A DNA stretch of 64,000 nucleotides from a bacterium (GTDB taxonomy: Bacteria > Pseudomonadota > Alphaproteobacteria > SP197), in contig JAPPGE010000049.1 in assembly GCA_028821455.1 (NCBI GenBank), positions 24,309-88,308 of the forward strand. Reading direction: 5' to 3'. Both the position numbers and the translations under genes were made by a program. The notes below the pieces were generated by a model that saw nothing but the letters and a program-made list of their open reading frames with translations, searched no databases and was not told the origin of the DNA. Positions 1 to 14,002 of this stretch are shown piece after piece; positions within the stretch are counted from its first letter, which is position 1; every line of letters begins with the position of its first letter.

Positions 1-5
1 GGTCT

Positions 6-494
6 TCAGAAGAACACCACCAGCAGCGCAACACCGGCCAATCCACCCATGATGAAGGTAGCGGCGCTGACGATACCGGTGAGCGTGCTCCAGTCGGCAA
101 GGCGCCATGTCTGGCCTTCGATGTTGAACATGACCTGGAAGCGGTCGTCGTCGCCATCGGCGAAACGCTTCAGGGCGGTTTCGGCGCCATGCGCTTCCTT
201 GATGGAGACCAGGGTCACGAGGATCATGCTCAGCGCCGATGTCAACGTGCCCAGACCGAAGACCAGCACCGTCGCCAGCGCGAACCAGTGGAAGGCTCCC
301 TCGTTTTCACCCGTGGTGGTGCTCATGAAGCCGATGATGAGAGCAGCGCCACCGGCATTGCCGAACAGGAGAAGACGAACCGACTCGAGGAGCATCCGGA
401 ACATGACGTTGCGGCGCATGGCAACGACCTTGTATCCCTCCCGGAGCCACTCCTCGCCGGTCTCTTCCAGGGAAAAGTCATGGAGTTTCTTCAC
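6..494 (-). CDS. Small membrane protein of unknown function (about 3 TM helices), last visible gene of the metal/SPFH operon
   Basis: 162-aa ORF with hydrophobic stretches; GTG start overlaps the upstream TGA (GTGA); truncated paralog at 58173. Confidence 0.75.
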   Translation of the reverse strand: MKKLHDFSLEETGEEWLREGYKVVAMRRNVMFRMLLESVRLLLFGNAGGAALIIGFMSTTTGENEGAFHWFALATVLVFGLGTLTSALSMILVTLVSIKEAHGAETALKRFADGDDDRFQVMFNIEGQTWRLADWSTLTGIVSAATFIMGGLAGVALLVVFF

Positions 495-1672
495 TCGGCG
501 GCCTCCCTTTCGGAATTGTAGCCGGAAAGGTCAACGATTCGCACGTAGTCCGAGCCGACATTGCTACCCTCGTCGAAGGAGACCACCCAGTCGTCGATAT
601 GGACGGGATCCCGCGACAGTGCCACTGTCAGAAAGACCTCCCGACTCAACTCGTCCGGCATGCGTTTCAGAACTTCGACGATGAAACGACCCACGATATA
701 GCCTTCCAGGCTGAACAGGTTCACGACACCCTCCGCGATCTCCGGTTCGGTGTTCCGGTAGGCGTCGAGGGCGAGGCGGAAGCGTCTCACCAGCGCAATG
801 TTCTCGTTGGCGAAGTCTGGAATGACTCTCGTCAGGAAGATCCGTTCGTTCGAGAAGTCCAGCGACGCCTCGAGGCGCCCGCTGTCAACAAAGGACAGGA
901 GGCCGAAGGAATAGTCGTTGCCGAGGGATCGCGATGTGTTGATCACTTCGGCGGCCGGTCCGAGAGTGGTGGCCAGCAACACGACGTCCAGATCCGCCTT
1001 TTCCATGTCGAACACTGTCGAGTGCACGGCATGGGAGTGCCGCGAGTAGGCCGCCTTGGCAAGAATCGAGAGATCGAAGGATCTCAGGGCGTCCTCGTAG
1101 CTGTCGATCACGGTGCGACCGAACGAGTCGTCCTGATGAATGATACCGAACCGGCGGGCGTTCAGGTTTTCGACGAAGTGCTCGACCAGGTGCCGCGTTT
1201 CCTCGGAGTACCCGGCGCGCAGGTTCACCACGTTGGGATTTCGCCGGGTGTCGCTCAGAAAATCGGCCCCTGTGAGGTGGCCGACGAAGGGCATCAACGC
1301 CTTCCTGAAGATAGATACCATGCGTTCGGTCGTCGGCGTGCCGACACCGCCCAGGACGGCAAACACTTCCTCGCCATCGACGAACCGGTCCGCGTTGGCT
1401 GCCGCCCGGTCCGGATCGTAACCGTCGTCCAGCGCCAGGAGCACCAGTTGTCTGCCGTTGACACCGCCGCCGGCGTTGAACTCATGGAACGCGGTCAGTA
1501 TGCCATCGCGGTACTGGATTCCCGCGTACCCGCAGGAGCCGCTGAAGCAACCGCTCTGTCCAAAGACGATAGAATTCTCGGTTACGCCTGGCGCTGCTGC
1601 CGACGCGTCGAAGGAAGCCTCCGCCGTCAGCACAATGAAGATGGCGGCAACACGGCTAATGGTCGCCGCCAT
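491..1672 (-). CDS. Periplasmic substrate-binding protein, LivJ/branched-chain amino acid (PBP type 1) fold
   Basis: Signal peptide; GGVNGRQL..DDGYDP, GGVGTPT, QDDSFG and SLEGY motifs; paralog at 56975. Confidence 0.85.
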   Translation of the reverse strand: MAATISRVAAIFIVLTAEASFDASAAAPGVTENSIVFGQSGCFSGSCGYAGIQYRDGILTAFHEFNAGGGVNGRQLVLLALDDGYDPDRAAANADRFVDGEEVFAVLGGVGTPTTERMVSIFRKALMPFVGHLTGADFLSDTRRNPNVVNLRAGYSEETRHLVEHFVENLNARRFGIIHQDDSFGRTVIDSYEDALRSFDLSILAKAAYSRHSHAVHSTVFDMEKADLDVVLLATTLGPAAEVINTSRSLGNDYSFGLLSFVDSGRLEASLDFSNERIFLTRVIPDFANENIALVRRFRLALDAYRNTEPEIAEGVVNLFSLEGYIVGRFIVEVLKRMPDELSREVFLTVALSRDPVHIDDWVVSFDEGSNVGSDYVRIVDLSGYNSEREAAE

Positions 1673-3044
1673 CTTGTTTCTCTTCTGCCGGCGCGCTTTG
1701 TCCTTCCGACGGCTCGGTTGTCATTGCCGTCGAAGTTTCCCGTCCCTTCTGGACGTCTTCGCTTGTATCAATGATCGTCGTCTCGACCATTGGCTGCTCG
1801 GACTGCTCCACCGCCGTCCAGACAGATGTAGGCGCGACATGGCGATGAGAGAAGATGGAAAGATCGTCGAAAATCAGGGAACGCAGTTCGGCAGTGCCCA
1901 GATGATGGCGTTCGCTCCTGGGCGAATGGAAACGTCCGTCCAGGAGATAACGATCCGACTGCACCGCCTCGATACCGTGTGCTCCTCTCTCACTTGCGAG
2001 CGTGATCGAGGGCCCGGCCCCGATCAGGCTCCCCGCGGGCTCCGCAGCTGCCGTGGTCACCTCGGGCAGCCTGCCAACGCCGGGCACGAAACTCTCGATC
2101 ATGTTGATGTCGATGGTCGAGGTGTCGTCCGGGTTGACCTTTGCCAACGTCGCATCCCGGAAGACTTCACGCATTCTCTGCCAGTAGCGTGTCGTGGAGA
2201 CCGAAGAGGGCTCGCTTCGATATGCGTCCAGCAGGTCCAGGTAGGCTTGCGCGCTGCTTGCGGCCTGCAACCGGCGTTCTCTCGCCCTGGCCCTGGCGTT
2301 CAGCACCACTGCCTCGGCCTGACCCCTGCTGCGGGCCAGGAGCTGTTCCGCCCGCCTGTTGGCCTCGCTCACGGTCTCGATGCTCTCGGCGATGGCATCA
2401 CTCACATCGCGGAAGGCGGCCACGGTTTCATCGATGGGACGCAGGCCCACGATATTGAGCGCCAGCAATTCGACGCCGATGTCGTTGGCGTCCAGAAAGG
2501 TCTGCGTTTCCTCGAACAGGCGCCGTTGAATGATATCGCGGCTGTTGGTGAATATGAGATCGATGAAGCTGTTGCTCATGTTGCCGACCAGGCGTTCGCG
2601 GACGACGAGGGCGAGCACGGCATGCGGGTCGGAAGTCGCGTAGAGATAGTTCCTCAGACTGCCGATCCTGTATTGCAGCGCCACGTCCACCTCGAAGAGG
2701 TTCGTGTCGCCCGAGAGGATCGAAAAATAGACGTTGCCGTCTGCATCCTGTGTCGCCACGTTCTGCCGGGTCACGCGCATGACCTTCCGCACGTGGGCCT
2801 GTTCAATCAGCGGGAACACGTAGTGAAGACCAGGCGAGACCTTCATGTTCACCACCTTGCCGAAACGCGTGACGACCGCCTGTTCCTCCTTCTTCACGAC
2901 GTAGAAACCGCTCGCCAGCACGGCGAGCACGGCAAGCAACACGAGTGACAGCAACAGAGGCCGACGCCGTTCACGCACCCAGTCAAAGCTCGAGTAGATG
3001 AAGCGTGTGCTCCAGGGGAGTTGTTCGGCAGACGTGTCAGACAT
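1656..3044 (-). CDS. hflK: HflK-like SPFH (band 7) membrane protein with a His-containing, acidic C-terminal extension
   Basis: TM anchor then GFYVVKKEEQAVVTRFGK..PGLHY, LSGDTNL..V..QYRI, AFRDV, ARSRGQA motifs. Confidence 0.8.
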   Translation of the reverse strand: MSDTSAEQLPWSTRFIYSSFDWVRERRRPLLLSLVLLAVLAVLASGFYVVKKEEQAVVTRFGKVVNMKVSPGLHYVFPLIEQAHVRKVMRVTRQNVATQDADGNVYFSILSGDTNLFEVDVALQYRIGSLRNYLYATSDPHAVLALVVRERLVGNMSNSFIDLIFTNSRDIIQRRLFEETQTFLDANDIGVELLALNIVGLRPIDETVAAFRDVSDAIAESIETVSEANRRAEQLLARSRGQAEAVVLNARARARERRLQAASSAQAYLDLLDAYRSEPSSVSTTRYWQRMREVFRDATLAKVNPDDTSTIDINMIESFVPGVGRLPEVTTAAAEPAGSLIGAGPSITLASERGAHGIEAVQSDRYLLDGRFHSPRSERHHLGTAELRSLIFDDLSIFSHRHVAPTSVWTAVEQSEQPMVETTIIDTSEDVQKGRETSTAMTTEPSEGQSAPAEEKQDGGDH

Positions 3045-3056
3045 GAGTTCGACCCG

Positions 3057-3962
3057 TCACTCCGGCGCCGGCGGCGGCAGCATCCCGTCGCCGTCAAGAT
3101 ACCTGAACAGCTCGCTGTCGGCGGGGAGTATCAGCGTCGTGTTCCTGTCAATGATCGCATCGTAGCTGTCGAGCGCCCGGATGAACTTGTAGAATTCAGG
3201 GTCTTCACTGTACGCGGCGGCCAGCGTGGACATCGCCTCGGCTTCGGCTTCTCCGAGAATGGTGGTGGCTTCGGCATGGGCGGTGGCCATGAGCTTTTCG
3301 TGCTCGTGGATGGCATAGGCCTCGATGCGTATGGCCGCTTCCTCTCCCTCGCTGCGGTAGCGTGCGGCAATCCGGGCGCGTTCGGAGATCATCCGCTGAA
3401 TGACACTGGGACGGTTTTCGGCCGGCAGGGTGTACTCGACGATTCCGATCTTCATGACGTCTATGCCGTAGTCCTCGGCAATCGGTTTGACCAGATCGAG
3501 GATCTCGCCGGAAATCAGGGAGACGTCCTCATGTTCCAGGCCGAGGCTCACGAACACTTCACGGGGCTTGTTGCTGACCACGATGCCGGCGCTCGATCGG
3601 TACAGGTCGCTGAGGCGCTCGACGGCCCTGACCTCGGTTCTGATCGATTCCACGTAGCGAACCGGGTCCGTGACGCGCCACAACAGATAGCCGTCGACCA
3701 GGACGTTTTTCTGGTCTTCGGTAATGAGCTCCTGGCTCAGGTTGGTGAGCGGATGGATGCGACGGTCGACCTTGTAGATCTTCGAGACGGGCCACGGGAA
3801 CTTGAAATGCAGGCCCGGTTCCTTCACCGGCGGCGCGATCTTGCCGAAGTGGGTGAGGACGCCTTGCTGCGATTCATCAATGGTGTAGATGCTGTCGTAG
3901 ACAACGATGGCGAGCAGCAGGACTGCGATCACGGCCGTGATCCGTTTGCCTCCTCTGGTCAT
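3057..3962 (-). CDS. hflC: HflC-like SPFH protein
   Basis: IDESQQGVLTHFGK..EPGLHFK.P, ITEDQKN..VD, RMISER, RSEGEE, DPEFYKFIRALDSY; AGGAGA RBS before ATG 3962. Confidence 0.85.
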   Translation of the reverse strand: MTRGGKRITAVIAVLLLAIVVYDSIYTIDESQQGVLTHFGKIAPPVKEPGLHFKFPWPVSKIYKVDRRIHPLTNLSQELITEDQKNVLVDGYLLWRVTDPVRYVESIRTEVRAVERLSDLYRSSAGIVVSNKPREVFVSLGLEHEDVSLISGEILDLVKPIAEDYGIDVMKIGIVEYTLPAENRPSVIQRMISERARIAARYRSEGEEAAIRIEAYAIHEHEKLMATAHAEATTILGEAEAEAMSTLAAAYSEDPEFYKFIRALDSYDAIIDRNTTLILPADSELFRYLDGDGMLPPPAPE

Positions 3963-4023
3963 GGCGAGTCTCCTACGGTTCCAGTCGCGGTCGCATCCCG
4001 AAGGACGCGCCCGGTAGGTCGTC

Positions 4024-6306
4024 TCAATGGTGGGGCGCCATTGGCGTGGCACCGCCGTTCGATGATTTCCACAAGGCTACCTTGTTCAGGGTTTCTTCGC
4101 TTGGAACGATGATCTTGTTCCTGCCGGAAAGCGAGGTCTCCAGCTTCTCTCTCCAGAGCATGTTGTGAAGGACGCCAGGCGTCAGGCGAACCACGTCGGC
4201 AATCACGCGAATGGCTTCGCTCTCCGCCTCGGAGGTGATCGTCCGGCGTGCCGCTTCTCCCTTGGCCTGCTCGAGTTCGTAGAACGCGTTGCCATGCGCC
4301 CGGGGTATCAACATGACCAGCAGGCGCTGGGCATTGACGATGATGCGTTCCCTGTCGTCCTGGGAGCTCGAAACCTCCCTGAAGGCGCTCATCGTTGCTT
4401 CGATGGGTTTCGCGGAAAGCAGGTTCACCTTGACGAGTTCGATGGTGTCGAGCACTTCGCTGTCCCCGCCCGCGGCACGGTTCTCGAAGACATCCGCAAT
4501 GTGGGCCTGCAGGGCCGCGCGCTCGACGTTCAGCAGCTCGTCCAGGGTCCGTCCGGCCACGAACTTGCGGAGTTCCTTGCGCACATTGTCGACGATGGCC
4601 TGTGCCGGGTTCGCGGTCCGATAGTGATAGGTATAGGGGTCGCTGACCCGGTACTGCACGTTCACCGACATTGACATGAGATTGACATCGCCGGTGAGAT
4701 ACTCGTAGCTGTCACCGCTGTTGATGGACTTCACTTCGCTGACCGGCCACTTGTCAGCCCTGACGAAGGGGCTTGGCGCAAGATAATGCAGGCCCGGCGC
4801 CAGGTCTTTCCAGACGACTGCGCCGAAAAGGCGTCCATAGCCGACTTCGCCCGGCTTCACGATGGTGAAGCCGCTCAAAAGGAACGCGGCGACGAGTGTC
4901 AGCCAGACGGCCCTTCCGGCGGGCGTGCGCGGGTTGACGGCCCCCGTTACCGGTCGATCGCGGGTGGCGCGGGACCACCATGCCTTGAAAGGCACGGAAA
5001 CCGGGCGCAGGTTCGAAAGCAGATCATGGTATCCGCTCGCCAACGCTCCGGCGCGGAACCGCCAGATGATGAGGGCGATGAGCCCGATAGCGCCGCCCCA
5101 CTGCACGATCATGATTGCCGGCGAATCGGAAGCGTCCAGGTTCACGGTCAGCGAGAGGCCAAACGCGATCATGAGCAAATCGATGGCAATGCCCAGCGCC
5201 ATCGTAACCACCACCACGGAGCCGACGTAGATGGACGCGAAGCGCGCGCCGAACTGGCTTACGATGATGGCGATCGTCCCGGTGTTGGTGGCAGGACCGG
5301 TCATCAGGAAGATGAGCGCCGCGCCGGGACTGAATCCCTTGGCGACCAGGGCCGCCGCGATCGGCGTGCTGGCGGAGGCGCAGATATAGAGGGGGATACC
5401 CACCAGGACCATGACGGGGTACGAGATCCAGCGGGCGTACTCGTGGGCCATGAGGTCGCTGGGTATCGCGAGGTAGATGAGGCCGCCAAGCGCAACACCG
5501 ACCAGCAGGGCGAACAGGATATCGTCGGCGACGTCGACGAAGCCGTAACGCAGAATGTGTCGGCAGACGGTCGCGAACGTGACGCCACCAAGGTTCCGCT
5601 CCGACTCGGAACTCGGAGACGGGGTCTCCCGGGAAGGCGTTAGGTACTCGCGGTAGAACTCCGGCTTGATCCATGTGGTGGTCCGAATGCGCCCCACGCT
5701 TTCGCTCAGGCGACGAATCCAGACCAGGAAGAATCCCCTGAGTTCGCTCGGACTCACATAGCAGTCATCAGCGCCCGGAATGAGCGGTTCGTGGTCGTGG
5801 GAGTGACCATGACTGTGATCGTGGCCGTGACTGTGACTGTGATCGTGGACTTCATGGTCCTCGTCTTCCGCGACCGTTTCGAAGGCGTCGCGACCGCGGA
5901 TCAACCCGATACAGAAGATGCCCGCCACCACACCCGTGATGAAGCTGACGACGGGTCTCACGACTGCGGGAATGAAGCCGAAGAATGCCTGGGTGACCAG
6001 AATCGAGTCCACCCCGGTCTCCGGAGCGGTGATCAGGAAGGACATGCAGGACGATCGGGATGCTCCCTTGCGGCGCATCTCCGCCACGACCGGCACCACC
6101 GAACAGCTGCAGAGCGGCATGGGAACACCGATGGCCGCGCTGGAAGAGACCGACTTGAGGCTGTCCTGCTTCAGCCACTTGAGAACGGCCTCCCGTGATA
6201 TGAACACATGGATCAGTCCCGCCAGGAACAGGCCGAGAAGGAGCATCGGCGCCAGAACGAGAAACGACGACCACAGGAAATCGAAGAACAGCGTCAGTTG
6301 GTCCAT
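4024..6306 (-). CDS. ArsP/DUF318 (SO_0444-like) metal permease with a His-rich loop, fused to a C-terminal HflK-like SPFH domain
   Basis: PLCSCSVVP, APETGVDS, PLYICASASTP, GPATN motifs; HDHSHSHGHDHSHGHSHDH loop; C-terminal GFTIVKPGEVG..FG..PGLHY, LTGDVNL, QYRV, IPRAHGNA. Confidence 0.85.
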   Translation of the reverse strand: MDQLTLFFDFLWSSFLVLAPMLLLGLFLAGLIHVFISREAVLKWLKQDSLKSVSSSAAIGVPMPLCSCSVVPVVAEMRRKGASRSSCMSFLITAPETGVDSILVTQAFFGFIPAVVRPVVSFITGVVAGIFCIGLIRGRDAFETVAEDEDHEVHDHSHSHGHDHSHGHSHDHEPLIPGADDCYVSPSELRGFFLVWIRRLSESVGRIRTTTWIKPEFYREYLTPSRETPSPSSESERNLGGVTFATVCRHILRYGFVDVADDILFALLVGVALGGLIYLAIPSDLMAHEYARWISYPVMVLVGIPLYICASASTPIAAALVAKGFSPGAALIFLMTGPATNTGTIAIIVSQFGARFASIYVGSVVVVTMALGIAIDLLMIAFGLSLTVNLDASDSPAIMIVQWGGAIGLIALIIWRFRAGALASGYHDLLSNLRPVSVPFKAWWSRATRDRPVTGAVNPRTPAGRAVWLTLVAAFLLSGFTIVKPGEVGYGRLFGAVVWKDLAPGLHYLAPSPFVRADKWPVSEVKSINSGDSYEYLTGDVNLMSMSVNVQYRVSDPYTYHYRTANPAQAIVDNVRKELRKFVAGRTLDELLNVERAALQAHIADVFENRAAGGDSEVLDTIELVKVNLLSAKPIEATMSAFREVSSSQDDRERIIVNAQRLLVMLIPRAHGNAFYELEQAKGEAARRTITSEAESEAIRVIADVVRLTPGVLHNMLWREKLETSLSGRNKIIVPSEETLNKVALWKSSNGGATPMAPHH
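5791..5848 (-). repeat. Low-complexity His-X codon repeat in the permease loop
   Basis: Repeated gtgact/gtgatc/gtggcc units encoding HDHSHSHGHDHSHGHSHDH. Confidence 0.7.
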
Positions 6307-6443
6307 GACAGCGTGTCGTCCAGCGGTCTCCGGTGCCACACGGTACCCGATGGCAGGGGATGTGTCGATGTAGTCCTAGGGAATTCTGGTGACTGCGGGT
6401 GATCCTCCCGAAAGTCGGATGTCCGGTCTGCTTGCCACCGGGT

Positions 6444-7436
6444 TCAGGGGTCTCCCAGGCACCCGGCGATGGCGTCACCGAGGGCGCGCATCATCTCGAA
6501 CCATGCGTCCGGACCCGGTTCGAAATCGACACCGATTGGGTCGAGTTCCGCGGTGCGCACGGTCGTTCCCTCGGTCAGGGTCTCCACGAGGTCCGGTGGA
6601 AACTGGGGCTCGATGAAGACGCAACGGACATCGTGCTCGACAAGGGCCTCGCGCAGTTCGACGATCCGCTTCGTGCCGGGCGGGCGGCCCGGATCGACGG
6701 CGACGGCACCCACGGTGTTGAGACCGAATGCATGCTCGAAATACTGGTAGCCGTCGTGGAACACGACGAATGCACGCTCATGTACCGGCTCCAGCTGCTC
6801 CGCGAGTGACGCTTCCAGTGTGGCGATGCGCTCAAGCATCGAATCGGCGTTGCTGAAATAGATTTCGGCGCCGTCAGGGTCGATGCGGCTGAGCGCGTCG
6901 GCGGAGACTTCGACAATCCGGCTGGCATTTCCGGGATCGAGCCAGATGTGCATATCGAATTCGCCGTGATCGTGACCGTGATCGTCATGTTCGTCGACGT
7001 GTGCTTCCTTGTGCTCGTCGTGCTCGTCGGGCCATAGACCGCCCTCGCGGGTGGGCAACAACTCCATCCTCGCCACTTCGTGCAAGGTGACGACTTCGGC
7101 GTCGGCTCCGAGGTTCTCGATGGGACGCTCGAGGAACATTTCCATGTTCTCGCCGATCCACACGATGAGGTCCGCCGCGTTCAGCGCCTGCGCCTCGGAC
7201 GGGCGCATCTGGTAGGTATGGGGCGACGCGGCGCCCGTGACCATCAGCCCGGGTTCACCGGTCTCTCCCATCACGCCGGAGACAAGGGAATGGATTGGCT
7301 GGATGCTCACGACGACATCCGTTGCCTGAGCATGCGGCACGGAAACGAAGGCAAGGCCGCAAAGGGCGGTACAGACCGCACCCTTGCGCACGGTCATCGA
7401 CCGCGCGGAACACAAGAGGCGCATGATACTCTGCAT
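6444..7436 (-). CDS. znuA: Zinc/metal substrate-binding protein (ZnuA/TroA cluster)
   Basis: VVVSIQPIHSLV, SPHTY, His/acid-rich loop, DMHIWLDP, FHDGYQYF, EPQF, LDPIG; GGAGA RBS before ATG 7436. Confidence 0.88.
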   Translation of the reverse strand: MQSIMRLLCSARSMTVRKGAVCTALCGLAFVSVPHAQATDVVVSIQPIHSLVSGVMGETGEPGLMVTGAASPHTYQMRPSEAQALNAADLIVWIGENMEMFLERPIENLGADAEVVTLHEVARMELLPTREGGLWPDEHDEHKEAHVDEHDDHGHDHGEFDMHIWLDPGNASRIVEVSADALSRIDPDGAEIYFSNADSMLERIATLEASLAEQLEPVHERAFVVFHDGYQYFEHAFGLNTVGAVAVDPGRPPGTKRIVELREALVEHDVRCVFIEPQFPPDLVETLTEGTTVRTAELDPIGVDFEPGPDAWFEMMRALGDAIAGCLGDP

Positions 7437-7589
7437 GATGTGTCTCCAGTTTGAATTGCAGGGCGAAGGCCCCGCAGGTTCGCCTGGTGATCGCTCCCCC
7501 TTGAAGGATGGAAAGCAAGGAGCCCCGTCGCGGACGGCCTTCATCAAGGCCCGCGTCAGCCTGGACATGGCGGCCATGCCGACTTCATC

Positions 7590-7628
7590 GTGCCTCTTGG
7601 TTCAGTTCAAGCAACCACCAAGAGGCAC
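7590..7628. promoter_or_regulatory. Perfect 12-bp inverted repeat upstream of znuA (operator or RNA hairpin)
   Basis: GTGCCTCTTGGT (7590-7601), 15-nt spacer, ACCAAGAGGCAC (7617-7628). Confidence 0.45.
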
Positions 7629-8019
7629 AGGATAGTGTGCAGGGAGGCTCTTGCAACTCTCCCGGGATGTGAGGCGAGGATCCCGCGATGTCGGAGGCTT
7701 GTCCGAGGACCACCCTCGGTCATCAGTGGATTCGGGTCGGCGGACATGCGGCACAAGGCGCGGTGCCGATGGCGCGCCGTTTGACGCATGACGTCGCGGA
7801 CGCCTTGCGCCTTCCCTGGCAAGAACCCTGCGTCATGATCCTGGGAAGGTGCCGGCATCGTCCGGGAGTCCTGAGAATTGGTCGCTCAGGCGGATGACTG
7901 ACCGGGGCCGACGGCTGTATGGTGTGGTTCCTTGTTCCCCACGCGCGTGCGTTGAGTTCGGGCCGAATGTGCGTTGGAACGCCCATGCCGAACGGCGTTG
8001 ACCCCGGGAGACGCGCTTC

Positions 8020-9294
8020 GTGGACATGAGCCTGACAATCATTCTGATTGCGGCCATCGCCGCCGGTCTCTACATGGCCTGGGCGATCGGCGCCAACGAC
8101 GTGGCAAACTCGATGGGAACGTCGGTCGGCTCGGGCGCGATCACGGTCGGCGGCGCCATCGTGATAGCCGGAACGTTCGAGTTCCTGGGGGCGTTTCTTG
8201 CCGGCGGTGAGGTCACCTCGACGATCCGCAAGGGCATCATCGACGCCGAGGCGCTCGAGCACGATCCCGACCTGCTGGTCGTCGGCATGCTGGCAGCGCT
8301 TCTGGCGGCTGCCTCCTGGCTCACGGTCGCCTCCAGGTTTGGATGGCCCGTATCGACGACGCACTCGATCGTCGGAGCCATCATCGGGTTCGCCGTGGTC
8401 GCAATCGGCATCGAGGCCGTCCACTGGTGGGATGTGGCAACGATCGCAGCGAGCTGGGTGGTCACCCCGGTGCTCGCCGGATTGATCGCATTTCTCCTGG
8501 TGCTGAGCGTGCAGTGGCTGATCTTCGACAAGGACGATCCGGCCATCCAGGCCCGCCGGTATGTGCCCATCTACATCTTCGCCGCAGTGCTCGTGACCGC
8601 CACCGTGACCTTCGTCAAGGGCCTCAAACATGTCGGCCTGGATCTGAGCATGCCGATGGCGATCCTCTATTCGGTGCTCATGGCCGGCATGGTTGCCATC
8701 ATCTGCCGGCTGGTCATCAACAGATTGCGCTTCCGGAGCCTCGACGCTCCCACAGGGGGACAATCGCGGTTCAACGACGTCGAGAAAGTGTTCGGCATCC
8801 TCATGATCGTGACCGCGTCGGGCATGGCCTTCGCGCACGGCTCAAACGACGTTGCCAACGCGATCGGGCCTGTCGCCGCGATCGTGGGCGTGGTGTCGAC
8901 CGGCGGGGTCGCCGCAAAGTCGGCGGTTCCGGTCTGGGTGCTGCTGGTCGGCGCGGCCGGAATCGTCGTCGGCCTGGCGACGTTCGGTTACCGGGTCATG
9001 GCGACCATCGGCAGGAAGATCACCGAGCTCACGCCGAGCCGCGGATTCGCCGCCGAGTTCGCCGCCGCATCGACGGTCGTCGTGGCAAGCGGCACGGGAC
9101 TGCCGGTTTCGACCACCCAGACGCTGGTGGGCGCCGTGCTGGGGGTAGGGCTCGCGCGCGGGGTGGGGGCCCTCGATTTGGGCGTGGTCCGCAACATCTT
9201 CGTATCATGGGTGGTGACGCTTCCGGTCGGGGCGGCGCTCGCGGTTGCGTTCTATTTCGTCCTGTCGGCGATATTCCTTCAAGGGGCCGGATGA
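8020..9294 (+). CDS. pit: Inorganic phosphate transporter, PiT family
   Basis: GANDVANSMGT and HGSNDVANA signatures, PVSTTH/PVSTTQ, multiple TM helices. Confidence 0.93.
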   Translation: MDMSLTIILIAAIAAGLYMAWAIGANDVANSMGTSVGSGAITVGGAIVIAGTFEFLGAFLAGGEVTSTIRKGIIDAEALEHDPDLLVVGMLAALLAAASWLTVASRFGWPVSTTHSIVGAIIGFAVVAIGIEAVHWWDVATIAASWVVTPVLAGLIAFLLVLSVQWLIFDKDDPAIQARRYVPIYIFAAVLVTATVTFVKGLKHVGLDLSMPMAILYSVLMAGMVAIICRLVINRLRFRSLDAPTGGQSRFNDVEKVFGILMIVTASGMAFAHGSNDVANAIGPVAAIVGVVSTGGVAAKSAVPVWVLLVGAAGIVVGLATFGYRVMATIGRKITELTPSRGFAAEFAAASTVVVASGTGLPVSTTQTLVGAVLGVGLARGVGALDLGVVRNIFVSWVVTLPVGAALAVAFYFVLSAIFLQGAG

Positions 9295-9959
9295 TGAGGA
9301 TTGCCGAGGAATTCCTTCTCCTGCTCCGCGACGAGGACGGAGCACTGTCGCGGGCTCCGGAATGGCTGGTCCGCTACGCGCTGGGCGGGGCGGTCCTGAT
9401 GGACCTCGCATTGGAGAACCGCATCGACACCGACGCCGAGCGGCTGTTCCTGATCGATGCGGCGCCGGTTGGCGATCCCCTGCTCGATCCGATACTCGTC
9501 GAGATCGCGCAATCCGGAAGGACCCATGACGCGCTCTACTGGGTGGAGCATGCGACCCACCATGCCGACGAAATTCGCGAGACCGCGCTGACACGGCTGG
9601 TCAGGAACAGCGTCCTGACTGTCAGCGATGACCGCTTCCTCAGGATATTCGGAACACGGCACTATTTTCTCGCCGATGCGGAGGTCGAGCGCGATCTGTT
9701 CCGGCGAATTCGGGACGTGCTCCTGACCGACACGATTCCCGAACCGAGGGATATCGTGATCGTCACCCTGGCAGACGGCTGCGGGCTGATCGGTCATGTC
9801 TTGTCCGCCGACGAACTGGCCGGGGTCTCCGAACGCATCGCCCTGGTGCGAAAGCTGGAACTGATCGGCCGGACCTTTCTGACCGCGCTTGACCTCGCCA
9901 TCCAGCCCGCCGGGGGAAGGTTCAGTCACGGTCCGTCCAAGAGCTCCGGTGACGGATAG
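9291..9959 (+). CDS. GPP34/GOLPH3 family protein
   Basis: IAEEFLLLL..GAVLMDLALENRI..GDPLLD..L motif; ATGA overlap with the pit stop. Confidence 0.8.
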   Translation: MMRIAEEFLLLLRDEDGALSRAPEWLVRYALGGAVLMDLALENRIDTDAERLFLIDAAPVGDPLLDPILVEIAQSGRTHDALYWVEHATHHADEIRETALTRLVRNSVLTVSDDRFLRIFGTRHYFLADAEVERDLFRRIRDVLLTDTIPEPRDIVIVTLADGCGLIGHVLSADELAGVSERIALVRKLELIGRTFLTALDLAIQPAGGRFSHGPSKSSGDG

Positions 9960-10149: not shown

Positions 10150-11295
10150 ATGAACCTTGAGCCGAGTGCGGAACAGATTGCCTTGTTCGACGTGGCCCGG
10201 GCCTTCGCGCGCGACCGTCTGGCGCCCGTGGCCCGGGATCTCGAGGAGGCCGGGACCATACCGCGATCCCTGCTTCGCGAAGCCGGCGAACTGGGCCTCG
10301 GAGGCCTGTTTGTCACCGGGGAACTCGGGGGTGCGGACCTTTCCAGGCTCGACGGCACCTTCGTGTTCGAGGCCCTGGGTGCCGGATGCCCCTCGATCGC
10401 GGCCTACGTCTCGATCCACAACATGTGTGCGGCCATGATCGACCGGTACGGCTCACCGGACCAGCGCGCACGATGGCTCCCGGGGCTGGTGGCCATGGAT
10501 CTCGTCGCCGCCTACTGCCTGACCGAGCCCGGCAGCGGATCCGATGCCGCCGCCCTTGTCACGAGCGCCCGCGAAGACGGCGAATCTTTTGTGCTCAACG
10601 GCACCAAGAGCTTCATCTCCGGCGCCGGACTTGCCGACCTCTACCTCGTCATGGCGCGCACCGGCGATGCGGGTCCGCGAGGCATCTCCTGCATTGCCAT
10701 CGAGGCCGGCACCCCGGGCCTTGGTTTCGGTGCACCGGAAGAGAAGATGGGATGGCGGGCACAGCCCACGGCCGACGTGATCATGGACGAATGCCGCGTC
10801 GACGCCGGCAACCTCGTGGGCGAGGCCGGCGCCGGTTTTCGCCAGGCGATGGCGGGGCTCGACGGTGGCCGTCTCAACCTTGCCGCCGTCTCCCTTGGCG
10901 CGGCCCAGGAAGCCCTCGACCGCAGTATCGCCTACATGAGCGGGCGCCGCGCCTTCGGCGCCACCCTTGATCAGTTCCAGGCCCTGCAGTTCCGGCTGGC
11001 CGACATGGCGACGGAACTCGAGGCATCGCGCAGCCTGTTGCGCCAGGCTGCATGGAAGCTCGACCACGGCGCCGGCGATGCCACGGTGCAGTGCGCCATG
11101 GCAAAGCGCTTCGTCACCGACACCGCGTTCCGCGTGGCCAACGACGCCCTGCAGCTCCACGGAGGTTATGGCTATCTCGCGGACTACGGCATCGAAAAGA
11201 CCGTGCGCGATCTCAGGGTGCACCAGATACTTGAGGGAACCAACGAGATCATGCGCCTCATCATCAGCCGTGCGCTGACCGGTCCGCGTACGTGA
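10150..11295 (+). CDS. Acyl-CoA dehydrogenase (isobutyryl-CoA dehydrogenase-like)
   Basis: YCLTEPGSGSDA, LQLHGGYGY, RVHQILEGTNEIMR; valine catabolic context. Confidence 0.9.
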   Translation: MNLEPSAEQIALFDVARAFARDRLAPVARDLEEAGTIPRSLLREAGELGLGGLFVTGELGGADLSRLDGTFVFEALGAGCPSIAAYVSIHNMCAAMIDRYGSPDQRARWLPGLVAMDLVAAYCLTEPGSGSDAAALVTSAREDGESFVLNGTKSFISGAGLADLYLVMARTGDAGPRGISCIAIEAGTPGLGFGAPEEKMGWRAQPTADVIMDECRVDAGNLVGEAGAGFRQAMAGLDGGRLNLAAVSLGAAQEALDRSIAYMSGRRAFGATLDQFQALQFRLADMATELEASRSLLRQAAWKLDHGAGDATVQCAMAKRFVTDTAFRVANDALQLHGGYGYLADYGIEKTVRDLRVHQILEGTNEIMRLIISRALTGPRT

Positions 11296-12341: not shown

Positions 12342-13225
12342 CCTCAGTCGGATTCATCGGCCTTGGCAACATGGGAACGCCCATGGCCTGCAACCTGGTG
12401 GCAGCGGGTCTCCAGGTCACCGGCCACGACGTGGCGGAGGGAGCCCGCACCGTGGCGGCTGCGAAGGGTGTCGACATCGCCGACAGCGCGGTCGCCGCGG
12501 CGGCGAACCGCGACGTCGTCATCACCATGCTGCCGGACGGTGCCGCCCTCCTCGAGGTCTACCGCACGATCATGGCCGACGTGCGGGCGGGCACGGTCTT
12601 GATGGACTGCTCGACGGTCGACATCGCATCAGCAAGAAAGGCGCACGACATGGCGGCGGAACGAAACCTGCCGTCGGTCGATGCGCCGGTTTCCGGGGGC
12701 ATCGCCGGCGCCGAGGCGGGAACGCTCACCTTCATGGTCGGCGGGGATCCACAAGCCTGCGAGGCCGTCCGCCCGCTTCTCGACATCATGGGCCGCACGA
12801 TCGTCCTGTGCGGAGGCCCGGGATGCGGCCAGGCGGTCAAGATCTGCAACAACATGATTCTCGGAATCTCGATGATCGGCGTCTGCGAGGCGCTCACCCT
12901 CGCCAGGGAACTCGAGCTCGAGCCTGAGCGGGTGTTCGATGTCGTCTCGACCTCGTCGGGGTCGTGCTGGTCGATGAACGACTATTGCCCGCTGCCGGGT
13001 GTCGGCCCGGAGAGCCCGGCCGATCACGACTACAGGCCGGGATTTGCCGCAGCCCTCATGTTGAAGGACCTGGGCCTGAGCCAGCAGGCGGCCGCGTCGG
13101 TGGACGTCGCCACCCCGATGGGAGCGATGGCGGCCTCCGTCTACGAGACCATGGTGGCGTCGGGCATGGGCCACCTCGACTTTTCGGCGGTCATCCGGCA
13201 TGTCCGGTCGCTGACGAGGGAGTGA
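12338..13225 (+). CDS. mmsB: 3-hydroxyisobutyrate dehydrogenase
   Basis: FIGLGNMG, DAPVSGG, KICNNMILG, LMLKDL. Confidence 0.93.
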   Translation: MTSVGFIGLGNMGTPMACNLVAAGLQVTGHDVAEGARTVAAAKGVDIADSAVAAAANRDVVITMLPDGAALLEVYRTIMADVRAGTVLMDCSTVDIASARKAHDMAAERNLPSVDAPVSGGIAGAEAGTLTFMVGGDPQACEAVRPLLDIMGRTIVLCGGPGCGQAVKICNNMILGISMIGVCEALTLARELELEPERVFDVVSTSSGSCWSMNDYCPLPGVGPESPADHDYRPGFAAALMLKDLGLSQQAAASVDVATPMGAMAASVYETMVASGMGHLDFSAVIRHVRSLTRE

Positions 13226-13231
13226 TCCAGC

Positions 13232-14002
13232 ATGTCGGAACACATCATCGTCGAGCGCGACCGGAAGGTCCTGCTCGTCCGTCTCAACCGGCCCCAGGCA
13301 CTCAACGCTCTCAACACCGCCCTCGCCAGGGAACTCGTCTGTGTCCTCGAAGAGGCCGACCAGGACCCCGGCATCGGCGCTCTTGTCATCACCGGCTCGG
13401 AGAAGGCCTTTGCCGCCGGCGCCGACATCCGGGAGATGGCATCCAGGGACTTCGCCTCCGTCTTCGGAGACGACCCTTTTTCCGAGTGGGATCGCTTTCA
13501 GTCCCTGCGGACACCTACCATCGCCGCTGTCGCCGGCTATGCCCTGGGCGGCGGATGCGAACTCGCGATGATGTGCGACATCATCATCGCCGCCGAGGAT
13601 GCCCGGTTCGGCCAGCCGGAAATCAGGCTTGGCGTCATGCCGGGCATGGGCGGCACGCAGCGCCTTGCCCGGGCGATCGGCAAGGCAAAGGCCGTCGATC
13701 TCATCCTGACCGGGCGCACGATGGATGCCGCGGAAGCCGAACGGTCCGGGCTGGTGGCGCGCGTCGTGCCCGCCGACCGGCTGATCGACGAGGCCCTCGA
13801 GGTGGCGCATGCCATCGCCGGACACGGCCGCCTCGCCACGCGCATGGCCAAGGAGGCGATCAACCGCGCCTTCGAGACCTCGCTCGCCGAGGGTCTCGCC
13901 TTCGAGAAACGCGCCTTCCAGTCTCTCTTCGCCACCGACGATCAGAAGGAAGGCATGGCCGCCTTCATCGAAAAACGCCCACCCCGCTTCACGAATTCCT
14001 GA
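13232..14002 (+). CDS. Enoyl-CoA hydratase
   Basis: [41 protein letters not shown]. Confidence 0.92.

Follow-up and report, generated by a model that had tools for sequence, protein, structure and literature searches.

In the window analysed here, a stretch of bacterial DNA of 64,000 nucleotides, a single gene encodes an SO_0444/ArsP_1 permease joined to an HflK-like SPFH domain. This fusion gene is real and widely conserved, with no assembly error involved. We favour the reading, at a probability of roughly 60%, that it belongs to a dedicated 'caged transporter' module for zinc (thiophilic-metal) homeostasis, in which the permease is tethered to its own HflK/C-type cage. The fusion gene and its parts, in window coordinates, are as follows.

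4024..6306, minus strand: fusion gene, SO_0444/ArsP_1 permease plus HflK-like SPFH domain, 760 aa (ORF list, translation, Pfam, NCBIfam)
5047..6306, minus strand: permease domain, residues 1-420, two repeats and an extra ninth TM helix at 396-418 (NF033936; AF2 helices)
6103..6111, minus strand: CSC motif, C66-S67-C68, at the break between the short helices 50-60 and 67-79 (alignment, model)
5791..5856, minus strand: His-rich tract, H151-H172, in the central loop, residues 136-243 (read from the sequence)
5374..5388, minus strand: YICAS motif, residues 307-311, at the break between helices 290-303 and 310-322 (alignment, model)
4924..5052, minus strand: basic linker, residues 419-461, with a long helix at 421-448 (composition; helix from the model)
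4858..4923, minus strand: HflK-type TM anchor, residues 462-483 (hydropathy; aligns to the start of the E. coli HflK TM segment, residue 79)
4084..4857, minus strand: SPFH domain and coiled coil, residues 484-741 (Band_7, hflK profiles, PDB matches)

The sequence-only reading had claimed one uninterrupted ORF running from the permease into the SPFH domain, and the ORF list and translation confirmed it. The frame is open on the minus strand at 4024..6339 from a GTG or at 4024..6306 from an ATG (760 aa), and in the alignment the homologues begin at the position equivalent to the ATG. The product starts with the permease (residues 1-420), which a basic linker connects to a single TM anchor and a full HflK-like SPFH domain with its coiled coil. 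Pfam placed ArsP_1 (PF03773) on residues 5-375 (E 1.8e-44, 152.5 bits against a cut-off of 32.3) and Band_7 on residues 482-655 (E 5.7e-11), and the same two domains were found together in 117 of the 120 homologues listed. Among the NCBIfam profiles, the SO_0444 Cu/Zn efflux family (NF033936) matched residues 12-414 above its cut-off (325.5 against 300 bits). The CSC and YICA motifs and the 19-residue His tract named earlier are all present in the translation. The soluble insert described between the permease halves proved partly ordered, with a helix at 186-208 in the model, and the TM anchor corresponds to a hydrophobic segment at 464-483, beyond which the SPFH domain is joined by a 73-residue coiled-coil helix at 636-708 in the model.

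That the fusion is no assembly error follows from its recurrence and from contigs that bridge the junction. Close homologues are not always split into two genes: 38 of 78 related genome loci are fused and 36 are stand-alone permeases, the taxon labels of these loci being mostly those of metagenome bins. Likewise, 110 of the best 150 50%-identity cluster representatives carry the fusion, at 28-60% identity. In run X1, possibly the source sample, a 904-nt contig matches 4350-5253 exactly, and a 422-nt contig of X3, from another study, covers 4673-5094 with 27 differences and 0 gaps; no indels were listed in four runs, and neither a stop nor a frameshift was seen at the junction. Among the runs listed for the stretch, none was of RNA. 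It is thus most improbable that a lost stop, a frameshift or a chimeric assembly merged two separate genes. We found nothing in favour of such an artefact beyond three short forms (L038, L044, L077), which show that the region can break but are truncations rather than intact separate genes. Moreover, the 38 independent loci include several on assemblies titled 'chromosome' (2.5-7.2 Mb), and the linker is conserved in the alignment. With the same query, none of 300 other genomes from the window's own phylum contained the fused form, only separate permeases or HflK genes. No published description of an ArsP_1/SO_0444-SPFH fusion was found in the open-access literature searched, and term searches of PMC2636767, PMC7176098, PMC13086221 and 10.1101/2022.07.06.499078 returned no mention of it.

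The fusion protein was modelled from an alignment of 129 fused homologues (pLDDT 84.5); an earlier model from 22 close homologues (pLDDT 49) was discarded. Throughout the 129 sequences, C66, C68 and C309 are invariant. The His tract alternates from H154 to H172 (19 residues, 10 of them His), with H151 just before it; it has a pLDDT below 50 in the model and is variable over the deep family. Four pairs of short helices (50-60/67-79, 84-96/99-109, 290-303/310-322 and 327-339/342-352) are predicted; basic residues prevail in loops 36-49 and 78-85, acidic ones in 281-289 and 383-395. Because the paired short helices in the model and the loop charges fit, we suggest that the permease is an inverted repeat and that its three invariant cysteines lie where two putative re-entrant hairpins are broken. 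Flanking loop charges further suggest that the His-rich loop is cytoplasmic.

The best structural matches of the permease (residues 1-385, 250-283 aligned) were ArsB and the hairpin-elevator carriers (10tp, 8r33, 5l24, 4f35). ArsB 10tp_A ranked first with Z 13.1 for model residues 2-379, and Pho90 (11.6), CNT (10.6), AbgT (10.4), TRAP-QM (10.2) and DASS (9.9) followed for residues 1-385, although Z values of 10-13 are close to what chance alone yields for helical bundles and identity is 6-13%. Carriers of the hairpin/elevator class are built as inverted repeats that contain re-entrant hairpins and broken helices. The fusion permease differs from them in its three invariant cysteines, and PMC7176098 places ArsP in another superfamily, TOG, with a parallel 4+4 topology from hydropathy analysis, which disagrees with the inverted-repeat reading. 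The likeness to SO_0444 of Shewanella oneidensis, a member of the ArsP_1 family, lies in the NF033936 score, in the CSC motif, which is discussed for the ArsP_1/SO_0444 family in bioRxiv 10.1101/2022.07.06.499078, and in two homologous halves around a hydrophilic loop (alignment; PMC7176098). SO_0444-type proteins, however, are stand-alone permeases (profile of 351 positions), whereas the fusion subfamily adds the C-terminal HflK domain. SO_0444 is said to be predicted as ZntR-regulated in PMC3219624, while the fusion subfamily accompanies ZnuABC, ZIP and Zur-box-like sites.

The linker between the two domains is strongly charged, with a mean of 6.95 K+R versus 1.89 D+E over residues 417-463 in the 129 sequences (net +5.1). 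Beyond it, the fused SPFH domain matched the HflK chain 7vhp_E by sequence (E 5.2e-18) and by Foldseek (E 3e-13), and model residues 462-736 superposed on its residues 79-345 at 266 of 267 positions (VIA Z 15.5). It has the layout of solved HflK proteins, namely one TM anchor, SPFH domain, long coiled coil and C-terminal segment. Since it scores 114.6 bits on the hflK profile TIGR01933 (residues 482-741), below the cut-off of 159.4, while the canonical HflK reaches 260.4, the fused domain is HflK-like but not an HflK equivalog. Loop charges and the model suggest that the SPFH domain would be periplasmic.

Four further genes on the same strand complete the cassette.

3057..3962, minus strand: HflC-like gene (hflC'), 301 aa, 61 nt downstream of the fusion (TIGR01932, 173.1 versus 134.4)
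1656..3044, minus strand: second, free HflK-like gene (hflK2), 462 aa (Band_7; hflK 125.5 bits, below cut-off)
491..1672, minus strand: Peripla_BP_6 (LivJ-type) periplasmic binding protein with a hydrophobic N-terminus (Pfam E 2.9e-43)
6..494, minus strand: 162-aa membrane protein with three hydrophobic segments (no Pfam family)

These genes are tightly spaced or overlapping: the start of the binding-protein gene overlaps the end of hflK2 by 17 nt, and the start of the 162-aa gene overlaps the binding-protein stop by 4 nt. Both hflC' and hflK2 follow the fusion in 36 of the 38 fused loci, the other two being cut by contig ends, and also in four (L104, L133, L142, L148) of the five distant fused loci returned by a metagenome scan, which define the distant gene context. 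HflC' and HflK2 each have one N-terminal anchor preceded by basic residues, which, together with the positive charge of the fusion's linker, is evidence for a periplasmic side. A separate canonical pair of hflK (260 bits) and hflC (196 bits) lies elsewhere in the genome. The cassette copies are 27-32% identical to the canonical ones, the fused domain being 27% identical to the host HflK and HflC' 32% to the canonical HflC; HflK2 is 28% identical to the fused SPFH domain. In its C-terminal segment (about residues 370-400), at least 95% of 37 sequences retain H373, E378, H381, D393 and H400.

The binding protein and the 162-aa protein are conserved cassette members in the window's clade and are lacking from the distant fused loci. 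The closest solved structure to the former is 4kv7, a 'probable Leu/Ile/Val-binding protein' (154.8 bits); its CFSGSC cysteine pair was considered as a metal site and rejected, as it is not conserved among 35 orthologues. The 162-aa protein occurs in 34 of the 38 fused loci with 70% mean column identity (25 sequences), and it matched no Pfam family and only unnamed 'hypothetical' clusters in the Atlas, on which grounds we rejected it as an NfeD homologue. Complex prediction of fusion residues 1-490 with this protein gave 0.02 and 0.00, no-answer scores that speak neither for nor against an interaction. Both proteins are probably accessory subunits in the window's clade. The combination resembles TRAP (P+Q+M)/TTT systems in parts only: an elevator-like permease (TRAP QM, Z 10.1-10.2, near chance level) is encoded together with a small membrane protein of about 160 aa and a periplasmic binding protein. 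It differs in that the binding protein is of the LivJ/Peripla_BP_6 family and the small protein has no detectable family, and permease relatives, like the distant fused loci, occur without either partner.

The cassette is embedded in zinc-uptake genes, and the free HflK2, the binding protein, the 162-aa protein and this context are all new beyond the single-gene view. Two features lie upstream of the fusion gene.

6444..7436, minus strand: gene for a ZnuA-like zinc-binding protein (Pfam ZnuA E 5.8e-67; NF007091 243 bits, below the 268 cut-off)
7590..7656, minus strand: candidate promoter TTGCAA ... TATCCT and strong leader hairpin upstream of znuA (read from the sequence)

The longest znuA ORF extends to 7577, with translation probably beginning at the MQSIM methionine, as it does in locus L002. 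Gene order in the window is znuA, the cassette, znuC, znuB and then a Cu/Zn-SOD-like gene; distant locus L104 has the order fusion, hflC, hflK, znuA, znuC, znuB. Genes for znuA, znuB and znuC were each found in 11 of the 38 fused loci, and ZIP follows in 18 of them as well as behind 27 of the 36 stand-alone permeases. In seven loci, palindromes resembling a Zur box (at most two mismatches) occur 80-420 nt ahead of the fusion, all three perfect matches included, with none before the 36 stand-alone permeases and only six two-mismatch matches elsewhere in about 1 Mb; these counts rest on an assumed Zur consensus, which may not fit other phyla. The window itself contains no Zur box at two mismatches or fewer and three at up to three mismatches, all away from the cassette, against 1.8 expected by chance.

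The leader hairpin upstream of znuA has a fold energy of -29.7 kcal/mol (z -3.67). Hairpin and candidate promoter both recur in loci L001 and L002, where letters of the stem differ. This promoter was absent from the output of the consensus promoter scan, and no Rfam family matched the leader. Scanning the cassette's minus strand for promoters and terminators returned weak terminator-like sites only, below the shuffled expectation. The only Rfam hit over positions 1-9000, a sub-threshold fluoride-riboswitch match in coding sequence (18.2 bits versus 34, E 0.25), was taken as chance.

Together, the gene context suggests a zinc-acquisition role for the subfamily, rather than or besides efflux. 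Efflux or detoxification nevertheless has to be weighed. Here the permease would export zinc, copper or another thiophilic metal or organometal, and the ring would only cluster, stabilise or gate it, for example by keeping exported metal off sensitive periplasmic targets. The permease does pass the threshold of NF033936, the equivalog profile for SO_0444 Cu/Zn efflux, and the only experimental data on the family point the same way: according to PMC3219624, SO_0444 mutants are Zn/Cu-sensitive, the annotation deriving from sensitivity and complementation. ArsP relatives are described as exporters in PMC7176098, and RND/HlyD/OEP or other efflux genes stand beside some cassettes (RND or other in L026, L034, L047 and L056; ArsP_2 in L049; a P-type ATPase near L133). 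Yet the cassette sits between znuA and znuCB in the window and adjoins ZnuABC in the distant L104, ZIP genes are frequent neighbours of fused and stand-alone forms alike, and Zur-box-like sites precede the fusion in seven loci. The cassette moreover encodes a periplasmic binding protein, as importers typically do, and no MerR/ZntR or ArsR gene was found among the scanned neighbours. We regard efflux or detoxification as rather unlikely.

HflK/C modulates FtsH. The fused HflK could accordingly dock the permease into the host FtsH-HflK/C complex, with FtsH proteolysis setting its abundance. The structural match to HflK of solved FtsH-HflK/C complexes and the canonical hflK/hflC genes in the genome are compatible with such control. 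We consider it improbable, as the cassette carries its own HflC' and a second HflK with no protease gene, identity to the canonical proteins is low, and the fused domain falls below the hflK equivalog cut-off.

The caged-transporter reading would work as follows. The fused HflK domain, HflC' and HflK2 would come together on the periplasmic side of the membrane as an HflK/C-type ring or dome, tethering several permease copies in or at one fenced membrane patch, and the free HflK2 would set the number of permease-bearing ring positions. The permease would be an inverted-repeat, hairpin-type (elevator-like) carrier whose metal site comprises C66 and C68 on the cytoplasm-entering hairpin and C309 on the periplasm-entering one, adjoining two broken helices (TAPETG and TGPATN), with the His-rich loop facing the cytoplasm. 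In at least some hosts, zinc limitation would switch the module on through Zur. The sequence-only reading had held that the transporter is itself a subunit of the SPFH ring. This stands as plausible because hflC' and hflK2 adjoin the fusion, the fused domain superposes on HflK and the canonical pair is separate, whereas co-assembly itself is inferred. As for direction, the chances are about even that the module serves uptake, or zinc handling for the periplasm under limitation; efflux, as for SO_0444, has well under an even chance, and the rest falls to other possibilities. A more specific version, which we hold to be doubtful, would make the cassette a binding-protein-dependent, elevator-type secondary importer of zinc or a zinc-ligand complex, with its permeases covalently integrated into a dedicated periplasmic cage of HflK/C type, at whose dome the conserved His/Asp/Glu segment of HflK2 might bind metal. 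If this were true, the importer would consist of the permease together with the LivJ-like binding protein and, as its small subunit, the 162-aa protein, a partial analogy to TRAP/TTT, and the cage would be a fenced periplasmic chamber above a transporter cluster.

How far the permease depends on its ring can be judged from relatives that lack it. On the tree, stand-alone and fused permeases are intermixed, and truncated remnants exist; the SPFH block therefore appears to have been lost repeatedly, at least about 12 times, with the permease retained. Since the permease is kept after such loss, the ring would not be needed for permease retention and would be dispensable in many hosts. This argues for a scaffold that is accessory or regulatory rather than obligatory.

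Compared with the E. coli HflK/HflC-FtsH cage (7vhp, 7wi3, 9cz2), the module shares the N-terminal TM anchor, SPFH domain and long coiled coil as well as an adjacent HflC-type partner gene. It differs in that the cytoplasmic N-terminus of the HflK-like subunit is extended by a permease about 420 residues long and in that the cassette has a third SPFH gene, the free HflK2, no protease gene and a zinc-transport context. Two structures in which an SPFH oligomer associates with one particular channel, transporter or small membrane protein were among the fold matches of the fused domain. In those systems the client is separate and non-covalently recruited, whereas here client and SPFH domain form one polypeptide; no NfeD match was obtained for the 162-aa protein.

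To our knowledge, the roles and enclosed membrane proteins of bacterial SPFH assemblies (HflK/C, flotillin, stomatin-like) are largely open beyond FtsH. For the ArsP_1 family, the model suggests a hairpin/elevator architecture with a three-cysteine site, and the context of many database entries named only 'SO_0444 family Cu/Zn efflux transporter' suggests zinc acquisition instead of, or besides, efflux. The fusion offers a natural example in which the client of a probable SPFH cage is known, being covalently attached to it, and the partner subunits are encoded next door. One small operon thereby makes ring stoichiometry, the position of the client inside or outside and the effect of the cage on transport directly testable, and the natural 'cage-less' permease derivatives can act as controls.

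The fusion is genuine. As the sequence-only reading had proposed, one unbroken frame encodes it; the gene is on the minus strand, and its ATG is at the position where homologues start in an alignment. The CSC and YICA motifs, the His tract, the insert, the anchor and the SPFH/coiled-coil region named there were each located in the product.

Features of the fusion gene and its neighbours (all on the minus strand; residues are those of the fusion product)
4024..6306 (4024..6339 from GTG): fusion ORF, 760 aa from ATG, one unbroken reading frame
residues 5-375: ArsP_1 (Pfam, E 1.8e-44)
residues 66-68: CSC motif
residues H154-H172: alternating His tract, 19 residues
residues 307-311: YICAS motif
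residues 464-483: hydrophobic anchor
residues 482-655: Band_7 (Pfam, E 5.7e-11)
6444-7436 (longest ORF to 7577): ZnuA-like gene, first in minus-strand order, before the fusion
3057-3962: HflC-like gene (hflC'), directly after the fusion; TIGR01932 173 bits, above the 134 cut-off
1656-3044: free HflK-like gene (hflK2), after hflC'
491-1672: Peripla_BP_6 binding protein, after hflK2
6-494: 162-aa membrane protein without any family, last in the window

With NCBIfam models, the N-terminal part scored above the cut-off for the SO_0444 Cu/Zn efflux family (325.5 vs 300) and the C-terminal part below that for the hflK equivalog (114.6 vs 159.4). The permease insert is ordered in part, and the C-terminal half comprises a full SPFH domain plus coiled coil. 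Regarding misassembly, the junction is crossed by an exact 904-nt contig from run X1, possibly the window's source sample (4350-5253), and, gap-free, by a 422-nt contig from a different study, X3 (4673-5094); no indels were listed among contigs aligned to 4300-5700.

A search for near-length homologues gave 1073 matches at E <= 1e-3 among 8000 scored candidates, and 117 of the best 120 (60-95% identity) carry both ArsP_1 and Band_7. One fused homologue of 796 aa, P0066, additionally matches the Pfam family Zip (PF02535); it has the longest His-rich insert of the homologue alignment A1, which may be the source of this match. Cluster representatives at 50% identity, searched exhaustively, gave 8115 matches at E <= 1e-3. 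The best 150 comprised 110 with both domains, 38 with the permease only and 2 with the SPFH part only, so the fused architecture persists at identities as low as about 28%. With one genome scanned per species, 78 loci were obtained and sorted by ORF calling and phmmer into 38 fused genes, 36 stand-alone permeases (400-480 aa) and four partial forms; close homologues are thus not always two separate genes. Among the partial forms, L012 is partial only through its contig end, and L038, L044 and L077 are true truncations. Within the window's own phylum the fused form is uncommon: it occurred in none of 300 other sampled genomes, which hold separate permeases or HflK genes only.

A quick maximum-likelihood tree built from 83 permease domains mixes fused with stand-alone forms, its starred branches requiring 12 changes or more. 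A second tree, made with FastTree, has 170 rows: 40 of those 83 and 130 of the 150 representatives, leaving out representatives with an incomplete permease domain and fused ones under 650 aa. It nests the window's clade (100% local support) in a ladder of deeper fused representatives. Five loci resemble what deletions in the cassette would leave behind: in L038 and L077 the SPFH part is cut at about residue 626-650 and directly followed by ZIP, L044 holds split pieces, and in L029 and L036 the permease is followed by the 162-aa gene and then ZIP. Taken together, the trees and remnants indicate an ancestral fused state here and many deletions of the SPFH block. Both trees come from fast methods without a true outgroup, and the number of losses is approximate.

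The cassette genes are spaced as in an operon, with gaps of 61 nt (fusion to hflC') and 12 nt (hflC' to hflK2) and overlaps of 17 and 4 nt at the next junctions. Past the window edge, znuC, znuB and a gene encoding a Cu/Zn superoxide dismutase domain come next on the minus strand. With znuA ahead and znuC and znuB beyond, the cassette sits inside a znu cluster. The dismutase-domain gene that ends this series (12729-13586 (-) of L079, the own-genome locus just outside the window) encodes a periplasmic zinc/copper enzyme and adjoins the zinc transport genes. A candidate promoter, TTGCAA ... TATCCT, precedes the likely znuA start by about 150-200 nt (7590-7656 (-)). It is followed by a hairpin with a perfect 11-bp stem (-29.7 kcal/mol, z -3.67), which no Rfam family matches and which may act as a regulatory leader. 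A hairpin of different stem sequence occupies the corresponding position in L001 and L002. Elsewhere in the window, a bacterial GPP34 (Golgi phosphoprotein 3) domain homologue (about 9300-9959 (+)) follows a PHO4 phosphate transporter gene, and in L056 (2470-4596), upstream of the cassette, a GPP34 domain and a cytochrome P450 form one fusion.

The order fusion, hflC', hflK2, binding protein is kept in 36 of the 38 fused loci, the other two ending too early. The 162-aa gene comes next in 34; three misses are contig ends, and in the fourth, L048, it was not found and the binding-protein gene is interrupted (pieces at 10441-11187 and 13944-14255 of L048:10441-14255, about 2.7 kb apart). Titles of the related loci, which include assemblies titled 'chromosome', name Pseudomonadota, Gemmatimonadota, Latescibacterota, Acidobacteriota and Spirochaetota. 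Permease domains that are near-identical yet labelled with different phyla point to horizontal transfer, or to mis-binning in the case of some bins. When distant fused representatives served as seeds for a metagenome scan, most of the genes recovered were stand-alone permeases and five were distant fused genes. Downstream of four of these five (L104, L133, L142, L148) come hflC and a free hflK; the binding protein and the 162-aa gene are absent. The core is therefore the trio of fused HflK, HflC and free HflK, to which the window's clade has added the binding protein and small membrane protein. The gene order in L104 is fusion, hflC, hflK, znuA, znuC, znuB.

Band_7 occurs at six loci of the genome. 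Among them is a canonical pair, hflK (260 bits) with hflC (196 bits), which neighbours degP on a different contig. The cassette's versions share only 27-32% identity with this pair, and its two HflK-like domains share 28% with each other. HflK2 has a long C-terminal extension; at residues about 370-400, H373, E378, H381, D393 and H400 are kept in >=95% of 37 orthologues, a possible metal-binding feature atop the presumed dome.

An AlphaFold2 model from 129 fused sequences (mean pLDDT 84.5) matched E. coli HflK in its C-terminal part (Foldseek E 3e-13; VIA Z 15.5 over 266/267 residues, model 462-736 to chain 79-345). HflC' and HflK2 each have a single N-terminal anchor preceded by basic residues, and the linker 417-463 carries a strong positive charge (net +5.1 across 129 sequences), so the SPFH domains should be periplasmic, as in HflK/C. 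Each permease half of the model has two long helices, with a short-helix pair (50-60/67-79; 290-303/310-322) and then a broken helix (84-96/99-109; 327-339/342-352) between them; a ninth helix at 396-418 comes after the two halves. The invariant cysteines lie at the breaks of the short pairs and may form a three-cysteine site. The loop charges (36-49 and 78-85 basic, 281-289 and 383-395 acidic) fit an inverted repeat, in which the CSC pair would enter as a hairpin from the cytoplasmic side and the C309 pair as one from the periplasmic side, and the His-rich loop would be cytoplasmic. In contrast, a hydropathy study of ArsP (PMC7176098) proposes a parallel 4+4 topology. Residues 1-385 best matched the fold of ArsB (Z 13.1), then Pho90, CNT, AbgT, TRAP-QM and DASS, all hairpin/elevator carriers, with Z near the helical-bundle chance range.

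Zinc genes recur around these loci: ZIP follows the cassette in 18 of the 38 fused loci and directly follows 27 of the 36 stand-alone permeases, and znuA, znuB and znuC each occur in 11 fused loci. Applying TGTTAT-N3-ATAACA, which we take to be the Zur-box consensus, we found sites with <=2 mismatches ahead of the fusion, at a distance of 80-420 nt, in L006 (two), L007 (two), L012, L017, L031, L039 and L052, including all three perfect matches; none lay ahead of stand-alone permeases, only six two-mismatch hits occurred elsewhere in about 1 Mb, and the window itself has no match. The paired palindromes of L006 (2577-2611) and L007 (5756-5794), with 0-2 mismatches, immediately precede the fusion gene. 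Those of L006 come after znuA and would thus control the fusion cassette itself. We give uptake or zinc-limitation handling a probability of about 50%. Counting against pure uptake, RND-type efflux genes flank some cassettes, and efflux is the only experimental annotation of the SO_0444 family (PMC3219624); efflux is the less probable direction, though a serious one.

The fusion, its partner genes and its genomic setting are established, and the module is probably a transporter for zinc homeostasis held by an HflK/C-type cage of its own, with which it would co-assemble and which could affect transport. In the E. coli cage, HflK and HflC form a ring of 24 subunits around FtsH hexamers. A ring of this kind could hold up to twelve 10-helix permeases, and the 45-residue linker would also let them sit outside; that a free HflK is constantly present suggests that some K positions lack a permease. 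Defined clients are known for some SPFH cages, namely FtsH for HflK/C and, for stomatin, aquaporin-1 and UT-B (PMC12407830). SO_0444/ArsP permeases are likewise known, and source names among the homologues listed include 'SO_0444 family Cu/Zn efflux transporter'; no published description of the fusion was found in the open-access literature searched. What is new is the covalent union of an SPFH-type domain and an SO_0444/ArsP permease as a deep, widespread family, with a fixed trio of SPFH genes, a zinc-importer context and evidence for repeated loss.
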